A DNA stretch of 32,000 nucleotides, taken from NCBI GenBank assembly GCA_963704755.1, contig OY969938.1, positions 960,001 to 992,000 on the forward strand, given 5' to 3'. Positions 4,094 through 28,933 of the stretch are shown here, piece by piece (within the stretch, counting starts at the first letter, position 1; the number at the start of each line of letters is the position of its first letter). Both the position numbers and the translations under genes were made by a program. The notes beneath the pieces are model-generated. The model saw nothing but the letters and a program-made list of their open reading frames with translations, was not told where the DNA came from and ran no database searches. The DNA is from an uncultured Chloroflexia bacterium (GTDB lineage Bacteria > Chloroflexota > Anaerolineae > Anaerolineales > Anaerolineaceae).

Positions 4094-4240
4094 GGTGAAA
4101 AAATGAATTTACCTATATAACCCTGGCGTAGGTCGGGTTAGGGCTCGTTAATTGCAATTGAGGATGGCATAGCGTGCGGTTTACTCGGATCTTGCCCGTA
4201 ACCCGACAATAGAACGCAATTTTTCCGGATGTACCTGCAA

Positions 4241-6589
4241 TCAAACCAGCGAGATGCACACATCCAGCGGATCGTCGAAGGCCACCGAAAAGTGGTAGAA
4301 ATTATTCCCGGCCGGCTGCCAGTTGAGCGGCTGCTCGCCGCCCACAGCATACATCGGCGGCGCCGGCAACCAAAGCGAAAACCAGCCATTCGCCTCCCGG
4401 CCCAATTCCAGCCTCAGCCGGATATCCTCGGCGGTCACCTTGAACGACTTCAGCTCCACACCCTGGCTGAAATGCAGGTTGCTGCCGGCAAAAGCAGCCG
4501 CTCCGCTGGGGTCAGGATAAACCGCCAGCAATGCACAGCCATGCGGCGCCAGAAGCGGCATCGCCGGACCAGTCGCACTTTCGACCATCCTTTGGACGCC
4601 ATCCCAGAACGAACTGACCAGGTATCGCCCATCCGGCAAATTGAAATCCGCAGGGCGGAATTGCCAGGCCAGCGGTTTATCCTGGCTGTTGAAGCGCGCC
4701 AGCACGTGCCAGTCGCCGGTCGGGCCATGCATGTCCAACCGCAGATGCTCCGGGGTGGTGCGTTCGAACAAGTCCAATACCTCGGCTCGCCGGCCGAGCA
4801 CCGGCATCAGCACCCGGGCGATATCCAGGCGCTCTTGCGGCAGCCCGGGCAGGTCGTCCGAGAGCAGCAGCGACCCACCGGTCATCGCGATGGCGCTGGC
4901 GAGGGTCTGTACCTCAGCCAGGCTGAGATGGGTATCCGGTCGGACCAGCAGGCAGTCCGGGTCATTGACCCACCAGCGCCCGTGCATGGGGCTGCGGGCC
5001 AGGATATTCTGGATGGAATTACGCGCACAGGGCATGTGCGGCTCATTTTTGAACGGGAAGGTGAGGTTGAAGTAGCGCGGCGTCCAATCCCCGCTGACAT
5101 CAGCGCCGATGCGATTGGCCTCGACCAGTCCCAGCACCGAGCCCAACGGAGCGCCACAGCCCAGCAGGAAGGTATCCGGGCCGGCTGCCTCGCGCACAGC
5201 CTGCATGCCCATGCGCAGCACCTGAGCCCGTGTGCGGGTGGCATCGTAATACACACCCGGCAGAGCGGCCGCGTAGAGAAAGTCGAGCTTCAAATAGGGA
5301 TAGCCCCATTCGTGGGCCGCGGTCGCAATGACCTGGCGGCTATAATCCAGCGCCTCGGGAACGGTCAGGTCGAGTGCCTGGCCAAAGGCGTTCCAGACAA
5401 AACCGGCATTGGCCGGCCGGCCATGCCGGTCGCGCAGCAGGTAATCCGGGTGCTGGTGGGCCAGATGCGACTTTGGATGGACGATAAAAGGCGCCAGCCA
5501 CAGCCCGGGTGTAAGGCCGGCCTGCTTGATTTCAGCCGCCAGCGGAGCCACGCCTTCCGGAAAAGTCGGCTTGAACGAGAACCAGTCCCCCACCTGTGAT
5601 TCGAAACCGTCATCGATCTGCACCAGCGGCAGCGGCAGGTTCTTTTGTTGCGCCGCCAGGACCTTGAGGTTGTCCTGGATATTCTCGGCGCTCAAATGGG
5701 TATAAAAATGGTACCAGGAGCACCAGCCGGAGGGGACCAACTCGGGCAGGTGGACCTCATTTTCACGCGCGGCTGTATCCAGGTAGATACCCAGGGGATC
5801 TTCCAGGCTGCTATCGAAGAGCAGCGCCACTGCCCAATCGGTGCTGATCTGGCAGCCGGGGTCCAGGCGGGCGGAATCACCATTGGCCCACAGGTGCAAA
5901 CTGGGCCGGTCGTACAGCACAGCCTCCAGGCAACCGAAGTGTTGTTTTTGGGAGAGGAAACCTAATAACAACCCGCTGCGGCTGGCAGGGTGCGAAATCA
6001 CCCCGAAGAAATCCGAGCTGAAATAGCCGCGTGAGCGCAAGGCCGGGGTGCCGGCGTTGATGACCATCGGCTCCTGAAATGGCCCCAAGCGCGAGCGCAG
6101 CATGGCAGCCCGGGCCGGGTACGCCCCGCTATGTGACCAGGACTGCCAGCCGTTCTTGAAAAATGTCAGCTCCGACAATTCAATGTTACCAAGCTCGAAG
6201 GTACCCCGCTCGGGTTGGCCTCCTGCCTGCAGCAAGTCGATCCGGTCAATGGCCAGAGGCTGGCCGCCCTGGTTGGTCAGCTCCATGCGCCAGATCAACA
6301 GGGGTGAGCCGGGCAAAGTCGTAAATTCGACCCGTACGGCCAGGCCATAAGTATCCGCTGGGGCGCGATACTCCAGTCGCTCGGGCCCTCCGGACAGACC
6401 GGTAAACTTGAATTCCCCACCCGGCGCAAGCGGGCGGCTGATTTTAGCCGTTCCGTCCTCCGGGTGATACTGTACGCCCAGGTGCGCATTTTGAATATTC
6501 GGCAAGTTTGCCCGGATGCCAGACAGGCTGAAACGAACCAGGCTGTCGTCCATCTGGAAATGGAGAAAAGGAGTATTGATTTCTATCAT
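4241..6589 (-). CDS. Glycoside hydrolase family 36-type alpha-galactosidase (melibiase-like)
   Basis: Motifs GWCSWYHFY, LVQIDDGF, YLKLDFLY, WVNDPDCLLVR are typical of GH36/GH27-clan alpha-galactosidases. The track start (6772) adds 61 low-quality residues that run through the 6616-6664 palindrome. I use the internal ATG at 6589 (MIEINTPFLHF...). No clear RBS, so the start is uncertain. Confidence 0.8.
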   Translation of the reverse strand: MIEINTPFLHFQMDDSLVRFSLSGIRANLPNIQNAHLGVQYHPEDGTAKISRPLAPGGEFKFTGLSGGPERLEYRAPADTYGLAVRVEFTTLPGSPLLIWRMELTNQGGQPLAIDRIDLLQAGGQPERGTFELGNIELSELTFFKNGWQSWSHSGAYPARAAMLRSRLGPFQEPMVINAGTPALRSRGYFSSDFFGVISHPASRSGLLLGFLSQKQHFGCLEAVLYDRPSLHLWANGDSARLDPGCQISTDWAVALLFDSSLEDPLGIYLDTAARENEVHLPELVPSGWCSWYHFYTHLSAENIQDNLKVLAAQQKNLPLPLVQIDDGFESQVGDWFSFKPTFPEGVAPLAAEIKQAGLTPGLWLAPFIVHPKSHLAHQHPDYLLRDRHGRPANAGFVWNAFGQALDLTVPEALDYSRQVIATAAHEWGYPYLKLDFLYAAALPGVYYDATRTRAQVLRMGMQAVREAAGPDTFLLGCGAPLGSVLGLVEANRIGADVSGDWTPRYFNLTFPFKNEPHMPCARNSIQNILARSPMHGRWWVNDPDCLLVRPDTHLSLAEVQTLASAIAMTGGSLLLSDDLPGLPQERLDIARVLMPVLGRRAEVLDLFERTTPEHLRLDMHGPTGDWHVLARFNSQDKPLAWQFRPADFNLPDGRYLVSSFWDGVQRMVESATGPAMPLLAPHGCALLAVYPDPSGAAAFAGSNLHFSQGVELKSFKVTAEDIRLRLELGREANGWFSLWLPAPPMYAVGGEQPLNWQPAGNNFYHFSVAFDDPLDVCISLV

Positions 6590-6615
6590 GAAGGCTGTGA
6601 CCGTGGTTGAAAGAT

Positions 6616-6664
6616 TTTGAGTGTTTGTTGCGAATGACTTCGTCATTCGCAACAAACACTCAAA
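6616..6664. repeat. Perfect inverted repeat, 23-bp arms, 3-nt spacer
   Basis: TTTGAGTGTTTGTTGCGAATGAC / TTC / GTCATTCGCAACAAACACTCAAA. Located in the divergent 5' region between the GH36 gene (-) and the esterase gene (+). Confidence 0.95.
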
Positions 6665-6780
6665 CATAGTTATTATAACCGGGCTATTTAATTCGGCCGG
6701 TGTTACAATGAACATCAGTAAGATTACACTTATACTCTTCTTTGAAGAGTTATCTTCACTAAAGCAATCCATCGATCAAC

Positions 6781-12762: not shown

Positions 12763-12933
12763 ATGTCCCAAACCGCTACCTGCCCAGAATGTGAAGCTGA
12801 AATCGCACTGGATAACGTCGTACAAGGTGAAATCGTTGTCTGCCCGGATTGCGGTGTCGACCTGGAAGTAACCGCGATCGACCCGGTTGTCCTTGAGCTG
12901 GCCCCCATGGAAGAAGAGGATTGGGGTGAGTAA
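12763..12933 (+). CDS. lysW: Alpha-aminoadipate/glutamate amino-group carrier protein LysW
   Basis: Not in the ORF track (56 aa). AAGGAG RBS 12749-12754. Translation: [56 protein letters not shown]. Contains a CxxC...CxxC zinc ribbon and the conserved acidic C-terminal EDWGE tail characteristic of LysW. Confidence 0.9.
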
Positions 12934-12946
12934 CCCCGAAAAAGCT

Positions 12947-13837
12947 ATGAAAATTGGGGTTTTGCTTTCCCGCGTCCGGGTAGAAGAAAAGATGATCTTC
13001 GAGGCGTTGGAGAAACGCGGCGTCGATTACGATCACATCGATGACCGCCAGGCCATCCTGGACTTCGATGATGCCAACGGCTGGATGAAATATTCCGCCG
13101 TCCTCGAACGGAGTATGTCCTATGCCCACGGGCTGTACGCCACCCAGATCTTCAATGCCTGGGGGATCCCGACTGTCAATATGTCCCACGTGGCTGCCCT
13201 GTGCGGTGACAAGCTGGCCACTTCCGCCTTGTTGACCAAGATGGGTATTCCCCAACCGCACATCAAGGTGGCCTTCACCCCCGAATTGGCTCTGGAAGCC
13301 ATCGAGGAAATGGGTTATCCGGTGGTGCTCAAACCGGTGATCGGCTCCTGGGGCCGGCTGCTGGCCAAGGTCAATGACCGCGACGCCGCCGAAGCCATTC
13401 TGGAGCACAAGAGTACCCTGGGATCCTACCAGCACTCGACTATTTACATCCAGGAATACATCCACAAACCTGGCCGGGATATCCGCGTGGCTGTGATCAA
13501 CGGCGAGCCGGTCTGCGCCATCTACCGCTCCTCCTCGCACTGGATCACCAATACCGCCCGCGGCGGCGACGGCGACGTCTGCCCGATCACCCCAGACATG
13601 GAAGAGCTGTGCATCCGCACGGCCCAGGCGGTCGGCGGCGGCGTGCTGGCCATCGACCTGCTCGAGGATCCCGAACGTGGCTTACTGGTCAACGAGATCA
13701 ATCACACCATGGAGTTCCATACTCTGGCGCCGACCACCGGCGTGGACATTGGCGGCCTGATCGTGGATTACACCCTCAAAGTCGCCCGCGGCGAGATTAT
13801 TCCCCAGGGGTTCCACCCCATCCAGGAGGCTGCATGA
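12947..13837 (+). CDS. lysX: LysW--alpha-aminoadipate (or glutamate) ligase, RimK-type ATP-grasp
   Basis: [25 protein letters not shown]... with ATP-grasp motifs ([27 protein letters not shown]). The ATG at 12947 follows lysW by 13 nt. The track start 12887 overlaps lysW. Confidence 0.9.
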
Positions 13838-14871
13838 CTCTCACGGCCTCCATCGTAGGTGCATCCGGTTACGCCGGCGGCGAGGTTTTACGCCTGCTGC
13901 TCGGCCACCCGGATATCGAAGTAAAGCAGGCCACCTCTGAACGTCACCTGGGGGAATATGTGTACCAGCAGCACCCCAACCTGCGCAAACGCACCAACCT
14001 CAAGTTCACCTCGCGGGAAACGCTGGAACCCTGCGATGTCCTCTTCCTGGCCCTGCCTCACGGCGAGAGCCAGAAATCCATCGACACTTACGCGGCCATT
14101 GCCCCCAAAATCGTGGACCTGGCCGCGGACTTCCGCCTGCGCGATAACAAGCTCTACGAAGAATTCTATGGCGAACCTCACGCTGCCCCGGACTGGTTGA
14201 GCAAGTTCGTTTACGGCTTGCCCGAGCTGCACCGGTCAGAAATGGCTACCGCATCGTATGTAAGCGGAGTGGGCTGTAACGCCACCGCTTCCAACCTGGC
14301 CCTGCTGCCCCTGGTCAAGGCCGGGCTGTTGGACGAGAGCAAAGCGATTATCGTGGATATCAAAGTCGGCTCATCTGAAGCCGGCGCCAGCCCCAACCCG
14401 GGCTCGCACCATCCTGAACGCAGCGGCGTGGTGCGCACCTTTGCCGCTTATGGCCACCGCCACACCGCCGAGGTGATCCAGGAACTGGGCCTGACTAACG
14501 TGCACCTGACCATGACCTCGGTGGACCTGGTCCGTGGTGCGCTGGCCGCCGCGCATGCCTTCGTCAAACCGGGTGTGTCGGAAAAAGACCTGTGGAAGGC
14601 CTACCGCGGCTGGGCAGCCGACGAGCCCTTCGTGCGCCTGGTCAAGGACCGCCGCGGCATCTACCGCGTACCCGAGCCGAAAATCCTGGCCGGCAGCAAC
14701 TACGCGGACGTGGGCTTCGAGTTAGACCCCAACAGTGGGCACGTGGTGGCCATGGCCGCCATCGATAACCTGATGAAAGGCGCGGCCGGTTCGGCCGTCC
14801 AATCCATGAACTTAATCTGCGGGTTCGACGAAACCGCCGGGCTCGACTTCTGCGGACTACACCCCATCTAA
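13834..14871 (+). CDS. lysY: LysW-aminoadipyl-phosphate / N-acetyl-gamma-glutamyl-phosphate reductase
   Basis: [22 protein letters not shown]... (NAD-binding GxSGYxG), active-site [12 protein letters not shown] overlap with the lysX stop (13834-13837). The track start 13609 is an out-of-context extension inside lysX. Confidence 0.9.
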
Positions 14872-14884
14872 AAAGGAGCCGGGC

Positions 14885-15697
14885 ATGATTGTCATCAAAA
14901 TAGGCGGAGCCAGCGGGATCAACCTGGACGCGGTCTGCAAGGATGTGGCCGGGCTGGTGCAAAACGGCCAGCCGGTATTGATCGCCCACGGCGGCTCGGC
15001 CGAAACCAACGAAATCTCGACGCAACTGGGCCACCCCCCCCGCATGGTCACCTCGGTCTCCGGCTTTACCAGCCGCTACACCGACCGCACGACCATGGAA
15101 ATATTCGCCATGGTCACCAGCGGGAAAATCAATTCCCTGGTGGTCGAAAGGCTGCAGCAGGCCGGGGTAAACGCCTTTGGCCTTTCCGGCCTGGACGGGC
15201 GTGTGATGGTGGCCAGGCGCAAAGATGCCATCCGCATCGTCGAAAACGGCAAACAGCGCATCCTGCGCGACGATTTCACCGGCAAACTCGAATCGGTCAA
15301 CAGTGAGCTGCTGCAAACCCTGGTCAAAGCCGGGCTTACTCCGGTGGTCGCCCCGGTGGCAGTTTCCACCGAGGGTGAAATGCTCAACGTGGATGCCGAC
15401 CGGGCCGCCGCTTACCTGGCCGGTGGGGTTCAGGCGGACGTGCTGGTCATTTTAACCAACGTTCCGGGCCTGATGCGCAAGTTTCCGGACGAATCAACCC
15501 TGATTGCCCACATCCAGAAAAACCAGCTTGAAAAAGCGCTCGAATACGCCGAAGGACGCATGAAAAAGAAGGTCTTGGGCGCCACCGAAGCGCTCGACCT
15601 GGGCGTCCCACGAGTTATCTTTGCCGACGGCCGGGTAGAACACCCGATTGTAGACGCCCTAAATGGTAAAGGTACCGTAATATCTACGGAGAATTAA
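14885..15697 (+). CDS. lysZ: LysW-aminoadipate kinase / acetylglutamate kinase family
   Basis: 270 aa. IVIKIGGA..., LIAHGGS, LNVDADRAAA amino-acid-kinase motifs. AAGGAG RBS. Confidence 0.9.
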   Translation: MIVIKIGGASGINLDAVCKDVAGLVQNGQPVLIAHGGSAETNEISTQLGHPPRMVTSVSGFTSRYTDRTTMEIFAMVTSGKINSLVVERLQQAGVNAFGLSGLDGRVMVARRKDAIRIVENGKQRILRDDFTGKLESVNSELLQTLVKAGLTPVVAPVAVSTEGEMLNVDADRAAAYLAGGVQADVLVILTNVPGLMRKFPDESTLIAHIQKNQLEKALEYAEGRMKKKVLGATEALDLGVPRVIFADGRVEHPIVDALNGKGTVISTEN

Positions 15698-15699
15698 TC

Positions 15700-16893
15700 G
15701 TGGCCATAAAGCAAACCTTAACCGATACAAACCAAATCTTCGATATCGAAAATCAGCACACCAGCGGTGTGTATAGTAAACGCCCGGTCGCCATCGTGCG
15801 CGGAGAAGGCGCCCATATCTGGGATAGCGATGGCAACATGTACATCGACTGCGTCGGCGGCCAGGGTTCCGGCAACCTGGGACACGCCAATCTCAAGGTA
15901 GCCCAGGCCATCGCCGACCAGGCCGCCCGGATCATCTCTTGCCCGGAATTATTCTATAATCCTCAACGGGCCCTGGTCGAACAACGCTTGAGCGAACTGA
16001 CCGGTATGCCGCGGGTCTTTCTGTGCAATTCCGGCTCCGAAGCGGTCGAGGGGGCGATCAAGTTCGCCCGGCTGGCCAGCAAACGCACTGGTATCATCGC
16101 CACCATGCGCGGCTTTCACGGGCGCACCATGGGGGCCCTTTCTGCCACCTGGGAAAAGAAATACCGCGAGCCGTTCTATCCCCTGGTGCCGGACTACAGC
16201 CATATTGCCTACAACGACATGGCCGCCCTCGAAGCAGCCGTCAATGAAAGGACGGCCGCGGTGATTTTGGAAGTTGTCCAGGGCGAGGGCGGGGTCCGGC
16301 CCGGCGATCCCGAATTCCTGAGAGACGCCCAGGAAATCTGCCACGAACGCGGCGCTTTCCTGATCATCGACGAGGTCCAGACCGGCTTCGGGCGTACCGG
16401 CAAGATGTTCGCTCACCAGCATTACGACCTGAAACCCGACCTGCTCTGCCTGGCCAAATCGATCGCCGGCGGTATGCCCATGGGTGCGGTCATGATCGGC
16501 GAACGGGTTGGGGCCATTCCCCCGGCGACCCACGGCTCGACTTTCGGCGGGAACCCGCTTTCTTGCGCAGCCTCGCTGGCGGCTTTGGATGAGCTGGTCG
16601 ACAACCACCTGCCGGAACGGTCCGCGGAATTAGGCGCCTGGTTCCTGAACGAACTTCGCCAGATCCAGTCCCCTCTCATCCGCGAAGTTCGCGGGCTTGG
16701 ACTGATGGTCGGTATCGAATTGAAACAAAAAGTCACCCCCTACCTGCAAGCCTTGATGGGCAAAGGTGTGGTTGCCTTACCGGCCGGATTGACCGTAATG
16801 CGCTTCCTGCCGCCGCTGGTGATCAGCAAAGAAGATCTAACCCAGGTTGTCAGCGCCGTAAAGGAGGTCTTGACCAATGAACCAGCCCCTTGA
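15700..16893 (+). CDS. lysJ: LysW-gamma-L-lysine / acetylornithine aminotransferase (class III PLP)
   Basis: 397 aa, GTG start 2 nt after the lysZ stop. Motifs [41 protein letters not shown] (PLP Lys), [10 protein letters not shown]. Confidence 0.9.
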
Positions 16894-17935
16894 CCCCGTC
16901 GCCTTGCTGACCGGCCTGTTACAGCGTTACAGCCCCAGCGGGCAAGAAGAGGCCGCCTGCCGCTACCTGACCGCACAAATGCACAAACTGGGCTACAACG
17001 CCTGGGTGGATGGTGCCGGTAATGCCGTCGGTGAAATCGGCGAAGGCCCGAATGAAATCGTTTTATTGGGTCACATCGACACCGTGCCCGGCTATATCAA
17101 CGTCCACCAGGAAGACGATACCCTTTGGGGCCGCGGCTCGGTGGATGCCAAAGGTCCCCTGGCGGCTATGGTCGTCGCCGGCGCGGTCGCCGGCGCCAAA
17201 CCGGGCTGGAAAGTCTGCGTGATCGGCGCCGTGGGGGAAGAAGAAGACGGGCGTGGTGCCCGCTACCTGTGCAATCGCTATCACCCGCAGCACCTGATCA
17301 TCGGCGAACCCAGCCAGTGGAACCGCATTACCCTGGGCTACAAAGGCGACGCCCATTTCTGGTACATCGTCCGCCGGCCGGTCACCCACACAGCGGCCCA
17401 GATGGAAAGCGCCTGCGAGGCCGCGGTCATTTTCTGGAACAAAGTCCACGCCGAATTCGAAAAAATCAACCAGGACAAAAAGCGCACCTTCGACCTGGTG
17501 ATCCCCAGCCTGCGCAGCCTGTCTTCCAGCAGTGACGGCTTCAATGAGACCGCCCAGCTTGCCCTGGCCTTCCGCATGCCGCCCGGCCAGCAGGCCGAAG
17601 ACATCGAGACTGTCCTCAACGAGCTGGCCGGGGATGGAGTCGTTGACCTGGTCCGTGGAGAGCCGGCTTACAAAGCCGACAAGAACACTTCCCTGGTGCG
17701 GGCTTTCCTGTCCGCTATCCGCAACGAAGGCGGCGAACCTTCCTTTGCGCTCAAATCGGGCACATCCGATATGAACACGGTTGCGCCGGTCTGGCGCTGC
17801 CCCACGGTCGCCTACGGCCCGGGCGATTCACACCTGGACCACACTGCCGAGGAGCACACTTCCCTTTCCGATTATCAGAAAAGCATCCACATTCTGGCCG
17901 GCGTCTTGAGCAACCTGATGGTGGATGCCGGCTAA
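16877..17935 (+). CDS. lysK: LysW-lysine hydrolase / acetylornithine deacetylase (M20 peptidase family)
   Basis: 352 aa. AAGGAGG RBS. Overlaps the lysJ end by 17 nt. M20 motifs LLGHIDTVP, GRGSVDAKGP, GEEEDG. Last gene of the lysW-K order. Confidence 0.85.
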   Translation: MNQPLDPVALLTGLLQRYSPSGQEEAACRYLTAQMHKLGYNAWVDGAGNAVGEIGEGPNEIVLLGHIDTVPGYINVHQEDDTLWGRGSVDAKGPLAAMVVAGAVAGAKPGWKVCVIGAVGEEEDGRGARYLCNRYHPQHLIIGEPSQWNRITLGYKGDAHFWYIVRRPVTHTAAQMESACEAAVIFWNKVHAEFEKINQDKKRTFDLVIPSLRSLSSSSDGFNETAQLALAFRMPPGQQAEDIETVLNELAGDGVVDLVRGEPAYKADKNTSLVRAFLSAIRNEGGEPSFALKSGTSDMNTVAPVWRCPTVAYGPGDSHLDHTAEEHTSLSDYQKSIHILAGVLSNLMVDAG

Positions 17936-24031: not shown

Positions 24032-24193
24032 CATTTTGACAAACGCCATCACCACCATGTCGGCATGAAATGGTAAGAGATTAGTAAGTTGCAGATAAGC
24101 CAACCGTTGGTGGTTTCCAGGGTCATCAATCAGATCTCCACCCACCCTGAATATTGCACATCCAATTTCACTTCTATGTAACATCTTTTTCAT
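24020..24193 (-). CDS. Unlisted 57-aa ORF at the island's left edge (hypothetical; possibly a gene remnant)
   Basis: ATG 24193 to TGA 24020-24022: MKKMLHRSEIGCAIFRVGGDLIDDPGNHQRLAYLQLTNLLPFHADMVVMAFVKMVRR. Below the track's 60-aa cut-off. Weak RBS. Its composition changes from AT-rich (5') to GC-rich (3'). Confidence 0.25.
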   Translation of the reverse strand: MKKMLHRSEIGCAIFRVGGDLIDDPGNHQRLAYLQLTNLLPFHADMVVMAFVKMVRR

Positions 24194-24466
24194 ATCTTCG
24201 CTTGATCATAGTATCAATTCAGCAAAAAGATTGTTTCCTATATGACAATTTATCCAGTTTTCTTGAAATTATTTTATGCAACGAGATTAGTTTTCTCTTT
24301 GAAAAGGCACTTGAATGAAAACAACATAAAAATGGATTAGTACCAAAGCAAATAATTTGATCGCATAAGAACTGTCTTTCGTAACCAACTCTTCCCATCT
24401 GTTATAAATGTTTAATCTTTTTTTGCCTTCTCCAAATTAGCCATACAATTCCATCTCCTTCTCAGT

Positions 24467-24504
24467 AAAGAAAATGGCGCCCCGTATGAGACGCCATTTT
24501 CTTT
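24467..24504 (-). terminator. Candidate intrinsic terminator of the S8 protease gene
   Basis: AAAGAAAATGGCG (24467-24479) / 12-nt loop / CGCCATTTTCTTT (24492-24504), beginning 7 nt after the stop. On the - strand the 3' arm ends in TTTTCTTT. Confidence 0.6.
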
Positions 24505-24510
24505 ACACTT

Positions 24511-27090
24511 TTAGGCCGGCGTTATTACTTCTCTGACCTTGACTTTTTCAACGACTCTTTGATACACATTAATATCGTGTTCGGGTGCAATCTCAAAAGT
24601 GGCCAAGATCGCATACGGTATTGCATTACTAAAGTCATTGGCATCTGCTCGACAATTAACTTTTATGCCAAGAATATCATCCTCACCCCAGACAACTGCT
24701 CCGTCTCCAGCAAAGCGTTCATGCTGCAATGTTCCACGAGCAACTGCCTTATCATCGGCGTCTACCCTTGAAAGCCCGAGGTTTTTCCCGTACTCCTCAC
24801 ATGTGAACCACAGCTGTGCAGATCGATACTTTTGTGTTGTTGGTCGTATTGGAGTAAATGATGCCAAAGTAATGGTTAAGCATCTATACATCTGTTTCGC
24901 AGAGAAATTGAATGGTAATGGAAGCGTGTATAAGCAAGCCTTATCTTGAGATAGCTCTCCATAACCTATAAGTGTCACTCTGTTTTTTGCCCACTCTTTG
25001 ATTCGAGAAATATTTGGTATTCCATACCCTAACCATCTATGAATCTGATCTGCCCCGCGTCCTGGTAAACCGGTTTCACTACAAATAAGCTGTGCAACAG
25101 AATTCCATTCCGCACCATGAACAAGCATAGCTTTAAGAAGCAAGGCAGAATATTCTGGAGGTACATCTATTCCGATCTCATCATGAAAGACTTCATTTAA
25201 GGCATCGTAACAAGATGCCGCTTCATGAGAAATCAAAGCAGCGGCATCACTTGTTCCGAATGAATATCCGACGAAATTGGTCATACCTGCAAGGGCGCGT
25301 GGCTTAGCAGACAATATCCCAGGAGGATAAACGCTTGTTCCATCTCTCCACCTCGCGCTATTTGGAGTACCTAAATTTTCGAACAGCACGCTTCTTCCAC
25401 CAGAATATATAATATCTGGCTTGATTGAATTGTTAATGCCGCGTCCCATAGAGCTAATAGGGCTTGGCATCACGTTGGAACAGGGTAACAATTGCCTTGG
25501 ATTCTCTGCCCATACACTTTCATCTGTAAAAAGGGATCCAACTGTTAATGCGTTTATACTTTCAGCGGGGGATAACAACCTTAGGTTTCTCGTATTTTTA
25601 TTAAGAAGCCGAATCATCCTTGCATCTCTCTGCTCTATAGAAAGAGCTTTATAGGCGTCGAATGAGACACCGAGATCAATATCCTCAGGATGATTACCAG
25701 CACTTACAATAAACAATACGCTATATTTGAAACTTAACCAGTCCAGCAATTTTGCAAGAGGACTAATCATATTGTAATACATCCGCGCCCCGATGCCGAT
25801 TGAAAGATTTATCACGCGAACACTTGCTGCCACTTGACCAGCTTCCGATTCATACAATCGCCTAACAGCCTCATGAATTTTATCTACTAGGAGAATATCA
25901 TCTGGTATATACTCTCTTGTTCCTTGGAGGTTTGGATAGGGTTTCATAATCGGACGAACATATATTTTATGAGTAGGCAGCGATTCTATATCATCAGATA
26001 AATCTCCACGAGTAATCAATGAAGCCATTGATGTACCGTGCTGGCGATCGGTAATCTGATACGACGAAGTAAAATTATCAGGATCGTCTATTGTTAAAAG
26101 CCCATTTAATAATGGATGGCGTTCTTGTGGAAGTCCGTCAAAAAGCGCAATGATGGGCTCTTCGGCAATATTCTCTGGCTCACTAAAAGCTTTTTCATAA
26201 GGAAGGCCATCCTCAGTTCCAAAAACAATTGATTGACCTGTTGGTTTAAAAAACATAATCTGGTCTAACAAAACTAATTCAACATTTTCTTTTTGTATTA
26301 TTCTTTCAGCATATTGCCGAGGAATAGATGCTAGCAACGCATGATATCCAATTGTTTCAATACAAGATGACGTAATTACTCTTCCACCAATTCCCTGTAT
26401 ATATTCGATTATTCTGGTTTGAGATTGCGTTCGTTTCTCCGGAGATTGTCTAAAGAATAATTCAATCTCGCATTTTACGTCTGCAATTTCCGGACTACGT
26501 AGGTCTTCTTCCCATGTTCGGAGTATATCTGTTTCTTCCAGACGTTCTTTTACGCCCCAAAAATGGATATCTTTCAATGTTTTAAATACATTTCGCAAAC
26601 CGCCTTTGCCACGCGGGAAAGCACAATTCTCGTCCTGTTGAAACATTTGCCAGAGAGAAAGTATTTCTCCAAGTGCTCGCTGATTGGTTAGTATACAGAA
26701 ATACCTAAAGCTCATCGCTTTAGTGTTATCGCGTTCATTATTCTTGATACGATAAAAATCATCACTGTTTAGCACGTTGTCGTCAACAACTTCAAAGAGC
26801 CATTCAATGCTACCAGTATCTGCATTTAGATTTCTGACTGCCGTTTCAAAGCCACTTGGATCTTCAGCTACTTCAAGTACAAGTGTATACTCTGGTTCAA
26901 TACCATTAGGATTTTGCGCAATTCTGACTCTATTATTATCGAACGCTTGTTTTAGTATGTCAAATACGGGGGAAAGACGCTCTACCTGCCTTTGATGAGA
27001 TGGGTGATAAACCTCCTTGCGGCCACCATAGCGTCGCGCTTTGCTAACAGGAATTGGATCAGCAAAAAGGATTAAAGGGTTTTCAGCCAT
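24511..27090 (-). CDS. Cytoplasmic S8 (subtilase) family serine protease with large N- and C-terminal extensions (IetS-like by architecture)
   Basis: 859 aa. Catalytic motifs in subtilase order: D318 (IIALFDGLP), H351 (HGTSMASLI), N466 (VSAGN), S614 (FGTSDAAALISH). No signal peptide (MAENPLILFADPIP...). The ATG overlaps the ATPase stop by 8 nt. Confidence 0.85.
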   Translation of the reverse strand: MAENPLILFADPIPVSKARRYGGRKEVYHPSHQRQVERLSPVFDILKQAFDNNRVRIAQNPNGIEPEYTLVLEVAEDPSGFETAVRNLNADTGSIEWLFEVVDDNVLNSDDFYRIKNNERDNTKAMSFRYFCILTNQRALGEILSLWQMFQQDENCAFPRGKGGLRNVFKTLKDIHFWGVKERLEETDILRTWEEDLRSPEIADVKCEIELFFRQSPEKRTQSQTRIIEYIQGIGGRVITSSCIETIGYHALLASIPRQYAERIIQKENVELVLLDQIMFFKPTGQSIVFGTEDGLPYEKAFSEPENIAEEPIIALFDGLPQERHPLLNGLLTIDDPDNFTSSYQITDRQHGTSMASLITRGDLSDDIESLPTHKIYVRPIMKPYPNLQGTREYIPDDILLVDKIHEAVRRLYESEAGQVAASVRVINLSIGIGARMYYNMISPLAKLLDWLSFKYSVLFIVSAGNHPEDIDLGVSFDAYKALSIEQRDARMIRLLNKNTRNLRLLSPAESINALTVGSLFTDESVWAENPRQLLPCSNVMPSPISSMGRGINNSIKPDIIYSGGRSVLFENLGTPNSARWRDGTSVYPPGILSAKPRALAGMTNFVGYSFGTSDAAALISHEAASCYDALNEVFHDEIGIDVPPEYSALLLKAMLVHGAEWNSVAQLICSETGLPGRGADQIHRWLGYGIPNISRIKEWAKNRVTLIGYGELSQDKACLYTLPLPFNFSAKQMYRCLTITLASFTPIRPTTQKYRSAQLWFTCEEYGKNLGLSRVDADDKAVARGTLQHERFAGDGAVVWGEDDILGIKVNCRADANDFSNAIPYAILATFEIAPEHDINVYQRVVEKVKVREVITPA

Positions 27091-28096
27091 TATCTAATTC
27101 TGCCTCCTCAGAATTTGTTTCAGTGATTACTTGATGGGAATGTAATTTAAGCTGAGTTAATGTTATTGGTTTTGTACTCTCGCAAGGCGAGTGAAGAATA
27201 AACTGTCGATAAACTGATAGTGCAAATTCCTCAGCCTCGGCATAGCTCCTTCCAAGTAGCTTTTTGGCAAGAGTAGTAGATTCTAAACCAAATTTGAAGT
27301 TTGTTCGCTTTTCAAAATTAGAAAACCACAGTTCAAGATCTCGCCGACTAGGTCTGTCTAGCTCTAATTTGATTTGAAAACGTCTCCAGGCTGCTTGATC
27401 CAACAGAGTTTCATGGTTTGTTGCGGCAACCACAACGACGTAGCTTGGTAAAGCATCTATTTGTAATAAGAGCGAACTTACAACTCGCTTGATTTCACCT
27501 GTTTCATGTTGATCTCCACGTTCTTTTCCCAGCGTCTCGAATTCGTCAAAGAACAGTACACATTGCCTCGTTTTCACATATTCAAATAGTTTTGCAAGCT
27601 TTGAAGCGGTTTCTCCCAAATAGGCACCAATAATAGTCTCATATTTAACAACATATAGTGGTACCATAAGTGAAGTTGCAATAGCTTCTGCCAAAGACGT
27701 TTTACCATTCCCAGGGGGACCAACTAAGAGAATTTTGTTTCTTGGCTCAACACCATATGAACGCAACAGGTCAGCTCGCATTTGCTCTTCTATTAATTCA
27801 TTACACGACTGTTTGGTTACCTCGGATAAAAAGAGTTGATCAAGACGTCTTTCTGGAATCACTTTCTGAAATAGGTTCATTCCATTTCCATTAATGGAAA
27901 ACGTCTGTAAAGGCACCTCCCTTCGCTGCGCTTGATTATTCGTTGTACTAAGAATTTCTTCAATTTTCTTAGCCAACACTTCGTGTTGCTTAGCTCTTTC
28001 CTCAACACAAATTGCTTCAGCAGCTTTACGAAAGCCCTGATCATCACCTGTTGTACCACTTTTTATTAAATCACAAAGCAAATCGGCTCTTGCCAT
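27083..28096 (-). CDS. Classic-clade AAA+ ATPase (IetA-like by architecture)
   Basis: 337 aa. GGAGGAG RBS 6 nt upstream. Walker A GPPGNGKTS (aa 126-134), Walker B VLFFDEFE (180-187), second region of homology VVVAATNHETLLDQAAWRRF (sensor-1 N227, R238/R239). ~110-aa helical N-terminal domain. Confidence 0.9.
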   Translation of the reverse strand: MARADLLCDLIKSGTTGDDQGFRKAAEAICVEERAKQHEVLAKKIEEILSTTNNQAQRREVPLQTFSINGNGMNLFQKVIPERRLDQLFLSEVTKQSCNELIEEQMRADLLRSYGVEPRNKILLVGPPGNGKTSLAEAIATSLMVPLYVVKYETIIGAYLGETASKLAKLFEYVKTRQCVLFFDEFETLGKERGDQHETGEIKRVVSSLLLQIDALPSYVVVVAATNHETLLDQAAWRRFQIKLELDRPSRRDLELWFSNFEKRTNFKFGLESTTLAKKLLGRSYAEAEEFALSVYRQFILHSPCESTKPITLTQLKLHSHQVITETNSEEAELDNG

Positions 28097-28135
28097 AGTA
28101 ACTCCTCCAATTCTTTATTTGGCTTTATTGAGAAT

Positions 28136-28342
28136 TCAGAGGCGTTTAAGCACATCTTCATCAATAAAATTGCTTTCGCAAAAATCATAAAAAGTTTTCT
28201 GCGCAAGGTTGCTGGGAGTAACTTTCGAATTCTCCCATCGGTTTATAGTCGCAAAACTCACACTAAGAGCATTCGCGAGTTGTTTCTGGCTTAATCTCAA
28301 TTGCTCACGAACATATTTTAACTTGTTTTGCGAATTCCACAA
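28136..28342 (-). CDS. XRE-family helix-turn-helix transcriptional regulator
   Basis: KLKYVREQLRLSQKQLANALSVSFATINRWENSKVTPS is a canonical Cro/C1-type HTH. I place the start at TTG 28342 (GGAG 5 nt upstream, 68 aa), because the best promoter's -10 box overlaps the upstream ATG at 28375. The track start is TTG 28393. Confidence 0.7.
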   Translation of the reverse strand: MWNSQNKLKYVREQLRLSQKQLANALSVSFATINRWENSKVTPSNLAQKTFYDFCESNFIDEDVLKRL

Positions 28343-28370
28343 TCCTACTCCACATAACAAATGATATACA

Positions 28371-28398
28371 ATCATAGCACATGTTATATACAAGTCAA
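28371..28398 (-). promoter_or_regulatory. Sigma70-like promoter of the XRE/ATPase/protease operon (TTGACT - 16 nt - TATGAT) with flanking TTGTATAT direct repeats
   Basis: On the - strand: TTGACT (28398-28393), 16-nt spacer, TATGAT (28376-28371). The octamer TTGTATAT occurs at 28393-28386 and 28371-28364, 22 bp apart. Confidence 0.5.
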
Positions 28399-28655
28399 TG
28401 GATACGGTTAGGGAAAAAGGTAAATATGTTCTTCTACCACTGGCACAATTGTGGGTGCTCTCTGCACCATACTTACTACGCTTTCCGGAATGAAAGCGAC
28501 TGGCGCTAGATTTTGATCTTCGCTTTTAAAATTACAAAAAGCAGTTCATGTTTTCCCCAAAAGCGTCCTTGGTTGTGGCATTCCAAAACTTTAATTCAAG
28601 ATTGCTTATATGAAATTCTTTTTTTGTCGCTAATATAACGCCCTTCGTTTTTTTC

Positions 28656-28703
28656 GATTTTCATAAGCTCCTTTTCAATATGAAAAAGGAACTTATGAAA
28701 ATC
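28656..28703. repeat. Near-perfect inverted repeat (19 of 20 positions paired, 8-nt loop)
   Basis: GATTTTCATAAGCTCCTTTT ... AAAAGGAACTTATGAAAATC. Lies in the AT-rich right flank of the island. Confidence 0.85.
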
Positions 28704-28861
28704 AGGTAGCGAACCCTAATCATTGATTTATAGGGCTTTTCTGATTTGTCATAATAATTCTGTGTGGCAATACTGTACCATTCCATTTTTCTCGTTTACA
28801 TACTTTTTCTCCTCCTTATTTCCTCATTATCTGATCCACTATTCCCCCTTCCCCACCTTCC

Positions 28862-28890
28862 TTGACAAAAATCCGAAAAGCGCCTATTAT
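28862..28890 (+). promoter_or_regulatory. Sigma70-like promoter of the LacI-family gene (TTGACA - 17 nt - TATTAT)
   Basis: TTGACA 28862-28867, 17-nt spacer, TATTAT 28885-28890. Confidence 0.55.
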
Positions 28891-28904
28891 GTTCACGTGT
28901 GCAT
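28889..28904. promoter_or_regulatory. Candidate LacI-family operator (imperfect 16-bp palindrome ATGTTCACGTGTGCAT, central CG)
   Basis: Overlaps the -10 box and predicted transcription start of the LacI-family gene. Shares the 10-mer CACGTGTGCA with the palindrome at 30079-30092. Confidence 0.45.
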
Positions 28905-28933
28905 GAAAACTAGCCATTTTTCGGGCTGCTCCC

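Follow-up and report, generated by a model that had tools for sequence, protein, structure and literature searches.

A probable IetAS defense cassette with its own XRE-family regulator in the chromosome of an uncultured Chloroflexota bacterium

INTRODUCTION

IetAS systems consist of an AAA+ ATPase (IetA) and an S8-family subtilase (IetS), and were first described as a toxin-antitoxin system with a protease toxin and an ATPase antitoxin (Yamamoto 2009, as cited in PMC13069673). The same roles have been assigned to the pair on the Agrobacterium plasmid pTiC58 and to the SGI1 homolog (PMC5006074). In Mycoplasma, deletion of the ATPase gene alone is lethal, while deletion of the pair is not (PMC8562856). 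For E. coli ietHAS, no ietA mutant could be obtained and defense requires protease activity; the authors still reported the anti-phage mechanism as unknown in 2026 (PMC13069673). The B. cereus IetAS system acts by abortive infection and is toxic once SPbeta YosG is expressed (bioRxiv 10.1101/2022.08.27.505566). Phage protection by IetAS homologs has been described in that work and in bioRxiv 10.1101/2022.08.21.504612, as well as by Gao 2020, as cited in PMC13069673. Here, we describe a locus that appears to belong to this family, found in a 32,000-nucleotide stretch of DNA (the window; contig OY969938.1, positions 960,001 to 992,000) from an uncultured Chloroflexota bacterium, where a candidate IetA-IetS pair is preceded by a small XRE-family helix-turn-helix (HTH) gene.

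RESULTS

Two genes of the window match the IetAS profiles end to end

The cassette comprises three co-directional minus-strand genes that encode a 68-amino-acid (aa) XRE-family HTH protein, a 337-aa AAA+ ATPase, and an 859-aa S8 protease without a signal peptide. See Table 1 for the coordinates of all features. A preliminary description of this DNA, made from the letters alone, had proposed an IetAS-like ATPase-protease defense system, and the profile searches bear this out. The ATPase matches PADLOC profile PDLC04232 (IetA) at E=3.2e-144, with residues 1–329 of 337 aligned to profile positions 1–326 of 330. The protease matches PDLC04233 (IetS) at E=1.7e-282, with residues 1–854 of 859 aligned to positions 1–848 of 855. 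Pfam assigns the same two proteins to AAA (E=1.9e-29) and Peptidase_S8 (E=2.5e-17). A standard PADLOC run would label both large genes IetAS, and the large non-catalytic regions of the protease, earlier thought to be possibly undescribed, are already covered by the full-length IetS profile.

We read the cassette as a complete, apparently intact three-gene IetAS toxin-antitoxin or abortive-infection system, horizontally acquired and carrying its own XRE repressor, and we put the probability of this reading at roughly 0.8. Judged from sequence comparison, it is a member of a clade distinct from the Agrobacterium and E. coli prototypes, and one already represented in PADLOC.

The junctions between the genes are tight. 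The HTH stop codon and the ietA ATG are separated by 39 nucleotides (nt), with GGAGGAG upstream of the ATG, and ietA shares its last 8 nt with the beginning of ietS (ATGGCTGA). The hairpin that follows ietS has a predicted RNA fold of -31.5 kcal/mol (z=-8.3); a simple consensus terminator scan did not call it because of the loop and tail rules of that scan. The open reading frames, promoter, ribosome-binding site, gap, overlap, hairpin, and residue coordinates given in the preliminary description were all verified in the sequence. None of the other open reading frames of the surrounding insert has a Pfam match, and neither an SNF2 helicase gene (ietH) nor a substrate or precursor gene is found among them.

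Table 1. Positions in the window of the cassette, its putative control elements, and the surrounding insert
Feature	Coordinates	Strand	Remarks
Low-GC insert	24050..28930 (~4.9 kb)	.	From GC profile; lies between histidine-kinase gene and LacI-family gene
Terminator hairpin	24465..24506	-	Starts 4 nt past ietS stop; perfect 15-bp arms (24465-24479 and 24492-24506)
ietS, cytoplasmic S8 subtilase	24511..27090	-	859 aa; presumed toxin/effector
ietA, classical-clade AAA+ ATPase	27083..28096	-	337 aa; presumed antitoxin/restrainer
XRE-family HTH gene	28136..28342	-	68 aa; TTG start with GGAG 5 nt upstream; presumed operon autorepressor
Operator O2 (putative), ATATCATTTGTTAT	28354..28367	-	Second palindrome copy; covers expected transcription start
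Extended -10 box, TGcTATGAT	28371..28379	-	TATGAT 28376-28371, TG 28379-28378
Operator O1 (putative), ATAACATGTGCTAT	28374..28387	-	Palindrome overlapping extended -10 box
-35 box, TTGACT	28393..28398	-	Adjoins start of DNA homology with closest relatives (28399)

Comparison with described systems

The locus resembles ietAS as defined elsewhere (Gao et al. 2020; PADLOC ietAS; NCBIfam IteA/IteS) in its gene pair, gene order, orientation, and overlapping or abutting genes, and the canonical annotated iteAS on a Dongshaea plasmid has the same 8-nt overlap. It differs in that its IetS is about 100 aa longer than the canonical protein, matching the annotated IteS over residues 338–684 only (27%), and in that canonical loci lack the XRE gene and operators; the annotated Dongshaea iteAS has no upstream regulator.

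With pTiC58, the founding member, the gene order is again the same. IetA of the window shows 35% identity across a 254-aa alignment that takes in the N-terminal domain (E=3e-48). The pTiC58 IetS (836 aa, vs 859 aa here) aligns only across the catalytic region, residues 309–726, at 22% (E=5e-11), and PDLC04233 also reaches its C-terminal part. The upstream gene is AbiEi-like (DUF6088) on pTiC58, whereas it is an XRE gene in the window.

In SGI1 S026/S025 and Mycoplasma TA132/133, an ATPase antitoxin restrains an S8 protease toxin (PMC5006074, PMC8562856), which is the logic proposed here, but these are two-gene systems with no regulator described. ietHAS (Liu-DS4) is likewise an IetAS core with an added third gene that contributes to toxicity control (PMC13069673), but this gene encodes a large SNF2 helicase required for defense, whereas that of the window encodes a 68-aa DNA-binding protein. 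The B. cereus m1293 system is of Bacillota origin, its IetA has an N-terminus of the same helical character as ours, and, for triggering by phage, it provides the best functional precedent (bioRxiv 10.1101/2022.08.27.505566). ClpXP, Lon, FtsH, and the proteasome differ from the window cassette in the protease partner, which is of the ClpP, Lon, M41, or Ntn type rather than an S8 subtilase.

IetA and IetS retain their catalytic residues

We examined IetA conservation in a set of 103 homologs, including the pTiC58 and Dongshaea proteins. The window protein has the Walker A motif GPPGNGKT (nt 27698–27721) together with K132, D184/E185, N227, and R238/R239. The Walker A lysine, Walker B DE, sensor-1 asparagine, and both arginine fingers are invariant across the set, and the sensor-2 residue R297 is arginine in 102 homologs and lysine in one. 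The pore loop reads [Y/F]-[L/M]-G; residues 159–160 vary, and only G161 is strictly invariant. The best solved relatives are p97/Cdc48 and the best NCBIfam neighbors are FtsH, Cdc48, and PAN, although the likeness to FtsH, Cdc48, and PAN is confined to the AAA module. Conservation of the motor residues and of the pore loop argues for IetA as an active motor that threads polypeptide.

The catalytic residues of IetS were located at D318 (26137–26139), H351 (26038–26040), N466, and S614 (25249–25251), and the triad D318/H351/S614 and oxyanion residue N466 are invariant in 74 homologs. It is therefore likely, as proposed before for both enzymes, that the ATPase and the protease are catalytically competent. 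The protease had also been described as lacking a signal peptide. We found neither a signal peptide nor a hydrophobic segment, the maximum 19-residue Kyte-Doolittle mean within the first 60 residues being 0.34.

No solved IetS structure was found by sequence or by fold search, and we used an AlphaFold (AF2) model with a predicted local distance difference test score of 85.5 and a predicted template modeling score of 0.89. The model contains a long helix and alpha/beta domains at residues ~60–300, an S8 core at ~309–700, and a C-terminal beta-sandwich at ~707–835. The core is that of a canonical subtilisin: D318 closes the first strand, and H351 and S614 each lie at a helix N-terminus. The top fold matches are pro-Tk-SP, PCSK9, site-1 protease, Kex2/furin, and CspA/C, all subtilases with a retained pro-domain and a C-terminal beta domain. 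Weaker ACT/ferredoxin-like matches cover about 210–280 alignment columns and probably belong to the N-terminal alpha/beta region. From the model, the N-terminal alpha/beta domains resemble retained subtilase pro-domains and would be the likeliest handle by which IetA restrains IetS.

A conserved twin palindrome lies in the promoter of the XRE gene

The HTH open reading frame spans 28136–28393 on the minus strand. Alignment with homologs set the real start at the TTG at 28342, the position proposed initially. The product matches Pfam HTH_3 (E=1.8e-9), and its best NCBIfam matches, the MqsA- and NadS-type HTH domains, are both under cut-off. The MqsA-family model scores 34.7 bits vs a cut-off of 61.8; HipB, Y4mF, and others also fall below theirs, and no curated type II antitoxin family cut-off in NCBIfam is reached. 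Unlike a type II antitoxin, the XRE protein is probably not the toxin neutralizer, a role that, by analogy with homologous systems, would belong to IetA. It looks like a promoter-bound regulator, an accessory common in defense and toxin-antitoxin operons. CapH of CBASS, BrxR of BREX, and autoregulating type II antitoxins are promoter-bound repressors of this kind. As with CapH- and BrxR-type repressors, the first gene of the operon encodes a small DNA-binding protein and palindromic operators lie over its own promoter, but the window protein is not homologous to these regulators.

The TTGACT and TATGAT boxes are separated by a 16-nt spacer, and the TGnTATAAT arrangement also occurs in relatives. 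Promoter-like sites are not enriched in the window over shuffled sequence (11 found vs 11.9 expected). What lends this promoter credence is its conservation in position among relatives and its interlocking with a motif for which the chance expectation is 0.00. That motif is the palindrome ATAnCATnTGnTAT, present in two copies spaced 20 bp center to center (O1 and O2). The operator pattern ATANCATNTGNTAT has three matches in the window vs 0.00 expected by chance. The third match (ATATCATCTGGTAT, 25895–25908) lies inside ietS and was rejected as a functional operator; it falls on the codons of the conserved YIPDDI motif, probably by coincidence.

A strict-core match at the same promoter position was found in 10 of 13 relatives. 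Seven have two copies, which are spaced 20–22 bp in six (L001, L003, L007, L013, L016, and L020) and 33 bp in L023, and the other three (L019, L021, and L036) have one copy each. Related variants of the GCATATGC/GCAAATGC type occur in L011, L017, and L038. Furthermore, the recognition helix, F/Y-x-T-I-N-R-W-E-N, is as conserved among homologs as the operators are. Because the palindromes cover the -10 box and the expected transcription start, autorepression by two XRE dimers bound on one helix face at O1 and O2 would be the natural reading.

The HTH family numbers at least 200 sequence clusters, with proteins of 66–81 aa, mostly 66–67 aa. We sampled 14 places drawn from three widespread clusters, and in all 14 the HTH gene is followed by a 327–339-aa AAA gene and then an 854–864-aa S8 gene. 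Therefore, the HTH regulator appears to be dedicated to IetAS. Window-type HTH homologs were found only in the subclade nearest the window (IetS identity at least ~41%), which is mostly Bacillota (Oscillospiraceae, Lachnospiraceae, Sporomusa, Desulfosporosinus, and Paenibacillus), and the trio is also present on three IMG/VR viral contigs. The XRE partner had been flagged at the outset as possibly undescribed, and it is indeed absent from the searchable system definitions and literature.

Other IetAS loci have unrelated small DNA-binding genes directly upstream of ietA. These are XRE-like in L099 (6762–6974) and L090 (4610–4936), and ribbon-helix-helix-like in L117 (6796–7005), which suggests that distant loci have recruited regulators repeatedly and independently. 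On pTiC58, a same-strand DUF6088 gene (97030–97623; L096 131–724) precedes ietAS and matches AbiEi at E=3.6e-65. This gene, for which no AbiEii partner is visible, could be the pTiC58 equivalent of the XRE regulator of the window. Most small open reading frames upstream of ietA in high-GC relatives were rejected as Arg/Pro-rich artifacts. Additionally, one relative at 70% IetS identity, from a Bacillota metagenome-assembled genome (L027, 4805–8564), is a decaying copy: stop codons and a deletion disrupt the HTH gene, a frameshift breaks ietS in two, and only ietA remains intact.

Relatives are paired, widespread, and often mobile

A single-protein scan of reference genomes gave no confirmed relative; an alignment-based search recovered them. 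IetS has hundreds of full-length relatives at 35–76% identity in many phyla. A search of GTDB species-representative genomes gave at least 483 matches, and relatives also occur on 23 IMG/VR viral contigs and on plasmids, 60 of the 130 plasmid matches being to conjugative plasmids. The genes co-occur well beyond the window: the trio is present in every sampled place, and 89 of 94 related loci have an IetA gene directly before IetS, ending no more than a few tens of bases from its start.

The neighborhoods of these relatives are in keeping with a defense association, with restriction-modification systems, Abi_alpha, integrases, and prophage lysis modules adjoining. They include phage integrases with an AEP primase-helicase; an Abi_alpha gene; an AAA_15/21 ATPase; type I restriction-modification systems; Eco57I/ResIII restriction-modification with a DUF2726 helicase and TnpV; and tandem integrases with Fic. 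In a human-gut prophage (L130-L132, 1–9500), the HTH-IetA-IetS trio comes directly after holin, amidase, and three serine recombinase genes and is followed by Schlafen-like (SLFN_AlbA_2) or DUF2971 genes. This site is a typical prophage-end defense hotspot.

The cassette sits in a low-GC insert of probable Bacillota-like origin

GC content is 0.31–0.48 within the insert (about 24050 to 28930) vs 0.52–0.63 outside, with averages of 40% in the insert and 58% in the flanks, in a ~58% GC chromosome. The low-GC insert reported in the preliminary description is thus confirmed, and its limits reach ~0.5 kb farther on each side than stated there. A response regulator and a histidine kinase gene form one flank, and a LacI-family gene and an ABC ATPase gene form the other. 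The nearest relatives of the cassette are from Bacillota (for IetS, Oscillospiraceae and other Bacillota), reaching 76% identity in protein and 74% in DNA. For HisD of the flanking chromosome, the named relatives are Chloroflexota/Anaerolineales at ~69–71% identity. Combined with the difference in GC content, these affinities point to a fairly recent transfer across phyla, from a low-GC, Bacillota-like donor into a Chloroflexota chromosome.

DNA similarity to the closest relatives spans 28399, the base before the -35 box, to 24548, 37 nt before the ietS stop codon (24511) is reached; the low-GC DNA beyond it on each side (~0.5 kb) shows none. Therefore, the portable unit is the promoter plus the three genes. 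The low-GC margins (24050–24510 and 28400–28930) have no homology to the fetched relatives or to sequenced phages, their small open reading frames have no family matches, and they may be remnants of the donor element. The upstream margin contains an inverted repeat (28656–28703) with 20-nt arms that are 95% complementary and an 8-nt loop; a T-run follows on neither strand, so it is not a canonical terminator.

A search for integration signatures found no tRNA near the insert and no convincing direct repeats flanking it. The inverted-repeat pairs I2 and I4, close to the ends of the insert, were rejected as non-collinear chance matches in AT-rich DNA. An Rfam scan of the window gave no family. 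A DNA comparison with sequenced phages gave no similarity, and a protein search of phage genomes gave only one weak match.

A LysX-type ATP-grasp gene cluster elsewhere in the window (12887–17935) also encodes a class-III aminotransferase, a semialdehyde dehydrogenase, and an M20 peptidase. The cluster resembles an amino-adipate (LysW-type) pathway for lysine or arginine, which would fit a Chloroflexota host. Two long open reading frames overlap on opposite strands, 4229–5599(+) and 4241–6772(-). The minus-strand frame encodes 843 aa with a Melibiase domain, and the plus-strand frame is probably a spurious high-GC shadow.

DISCUSSION

Sequence and conservation suggest the following scheme. Dimers of the 68-aa XRE protein would bind both palindromic operators and hold the operon at a low, self-limited level. 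The sequence places HTH, IetA, and IetS on a single transcript, and with the 8-nt overlap the protease is made together with the ATPase. By analogy with the genetics of homologs, IetS would be the toxic effector, and IetA would spend ATP to keep it harmless. On the fold model, IetA plausibly holds IetS inactive via its pro-domain-like N-terminal region. Again by analogy, a phage-encoded protein would break this restraint and free the protease in the cytoplasm, and the infected cell would arrest or die before phage release, i.e., abortive infection.

Several observations weigh against the reading of the locus as an intact, self-regulated IetAS system. The NCBIfam equivalog cut-offs for the E. 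coli-type system are missed by far, at 225 vs 510 bits for IteA and 99.8 vs 900 bits for IteS. The known phenotypes all come from homologs, with identities of 22–35% where measured. The HTH gene is not obligatory, as intact IetAS occurs without it in L009, L018, and L022, and the active B. cereus construct has no HTH gene and only a ~215-nt leader upstream of ietA. We infer XRE binding to O1 and O2 from sequence, and a Bacillota-type sigma-70 promoter may go unused in a Chloroflexota host. Finally, the cassette stands alone here among housekeeping genes, outside any defense island.

That isolation also bears on the view that the cassette is mainly a selfish addiction module, acting by post-segregational killing, and here a stranded passenger without an anti-phage role. 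The prototypes on pTiC58 and SGI1 were found as plasmid or island stabilizers (PMC5006074, PMC13069673), many relatives reside in mobile elements, including the conjugative plasmids counted above, and the window has no defense neighbors. However, homologs protect against phages (Gao 2020, as cited in PMC13069673; bioRxiv 10.1101/2022.08.27.505566; bioRxiv 10.1101/2022.08.21.504612), relatives adjoin restriction-modification and Abi genes, and the window cassette is chromosomal with no mobile-element genes left to stabilize. Addiction and anti-phage roles are also not exclusive, and we regard a purely selfish module as a possible but secondary explanation.

The transfer from a low-GC source could also have left an inert recent import, unexpressed or heading to decay in its new host. 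The undrifted base composition (40% vs 58% GC) and the Bacillota-type promoter would fit, and L027 shows what such decay looks like (an HTH pseudogene and a frameshifted ietS). Against this, the window retains the three open reading frames, both operators, ribosome-binding sites, a terminator, and the full set of catalytic residues in intact form, which makes an inert import unlikely.

The preliminary description favored a model in which the AAA+ ring senses or unfolds a phage or host target and thereby licenses the protease; in a variant of this model, the ring would pass substrates on to the protease, as ClpXP-type machines do. The aromatic-hydrophobic-Gly pore loop of IetA and its full set of conserved motor residues do suggest that it threads polypeptides, and translational coupling suggests an IetA-IetS complex. 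In four independent homologous systems, however, the ATPase neutralizes the protease, and mutants lacking it die or cannot be cloned (PMC5006074, PMC8562856, PMC13069673). The predicted IetS fold also matches a monomeric subtilase carrying accessory domains rather than a chambered protease. Licensing is the less likely direction, since the homolog genetics make the ATPase a restrainer, and we consider this model doubtful. An ordinary secreted or maturation subtilase (e.g., a leader peptidase or a germination or nutritional protease) with a chaperone ATPase, to which the resemblance to pro-domain-bearing processing proteases (Kex2/furin, site-1 protease, and CspA/C) might point, is effectively refuted by the lack of a signal peptide or hydrophobic segment, the lack of a substrate or precursor gene in the insert, the full-length PADLOC IetS match, and the strict IetA pairing in mobile and defense contexts.

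Within the restrained-toxin reading, a more speculative and rather improbable extension is that the XRE protein is itself the switch of a three-component "IetRAS" system. Its inactivation during infection would give a transcription burst and lethal protease activity; the XRE protein could be cleaved by IetS, unfolded by IetA, or titrated by a phage factor. The unrelated DNA-binding genes found upstream in different clades, namely this XRE family, the XRE genes of L099 and L090, the ribbon-helix-helix gene of L117, and the AbiEi-like gene of pTiC58, would fit with it. If true, this would be a feed-forward trigger at the level of transcription that two-gene IetAS systems lack.

IetAS is a widespread defense and addiction system, present in many phyla and on plasmids and viral contigs. 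The window locus is an ordinary member of this known family and introduces no new principle. What goes beyond searchable descriptions is the dedicated, putative XRE repressor with its twin operator, which is a common, unremarked accessory of one large IetAS subclade. This very common three-gene form, with its operators mapped, would offer native on/off control for a toxic system that is hard to clone. The IetS fold model, with a pro-domain-like region, S8 core, and beta-sandwich, suggests where IetA may act, and the conserved IetA pore loop points to polypeptide threading within its antitoxin activity. Furthermore, the locus is a clean example of a minimal defense cassette transferred across phyla, from the promoter to the end of ietS.

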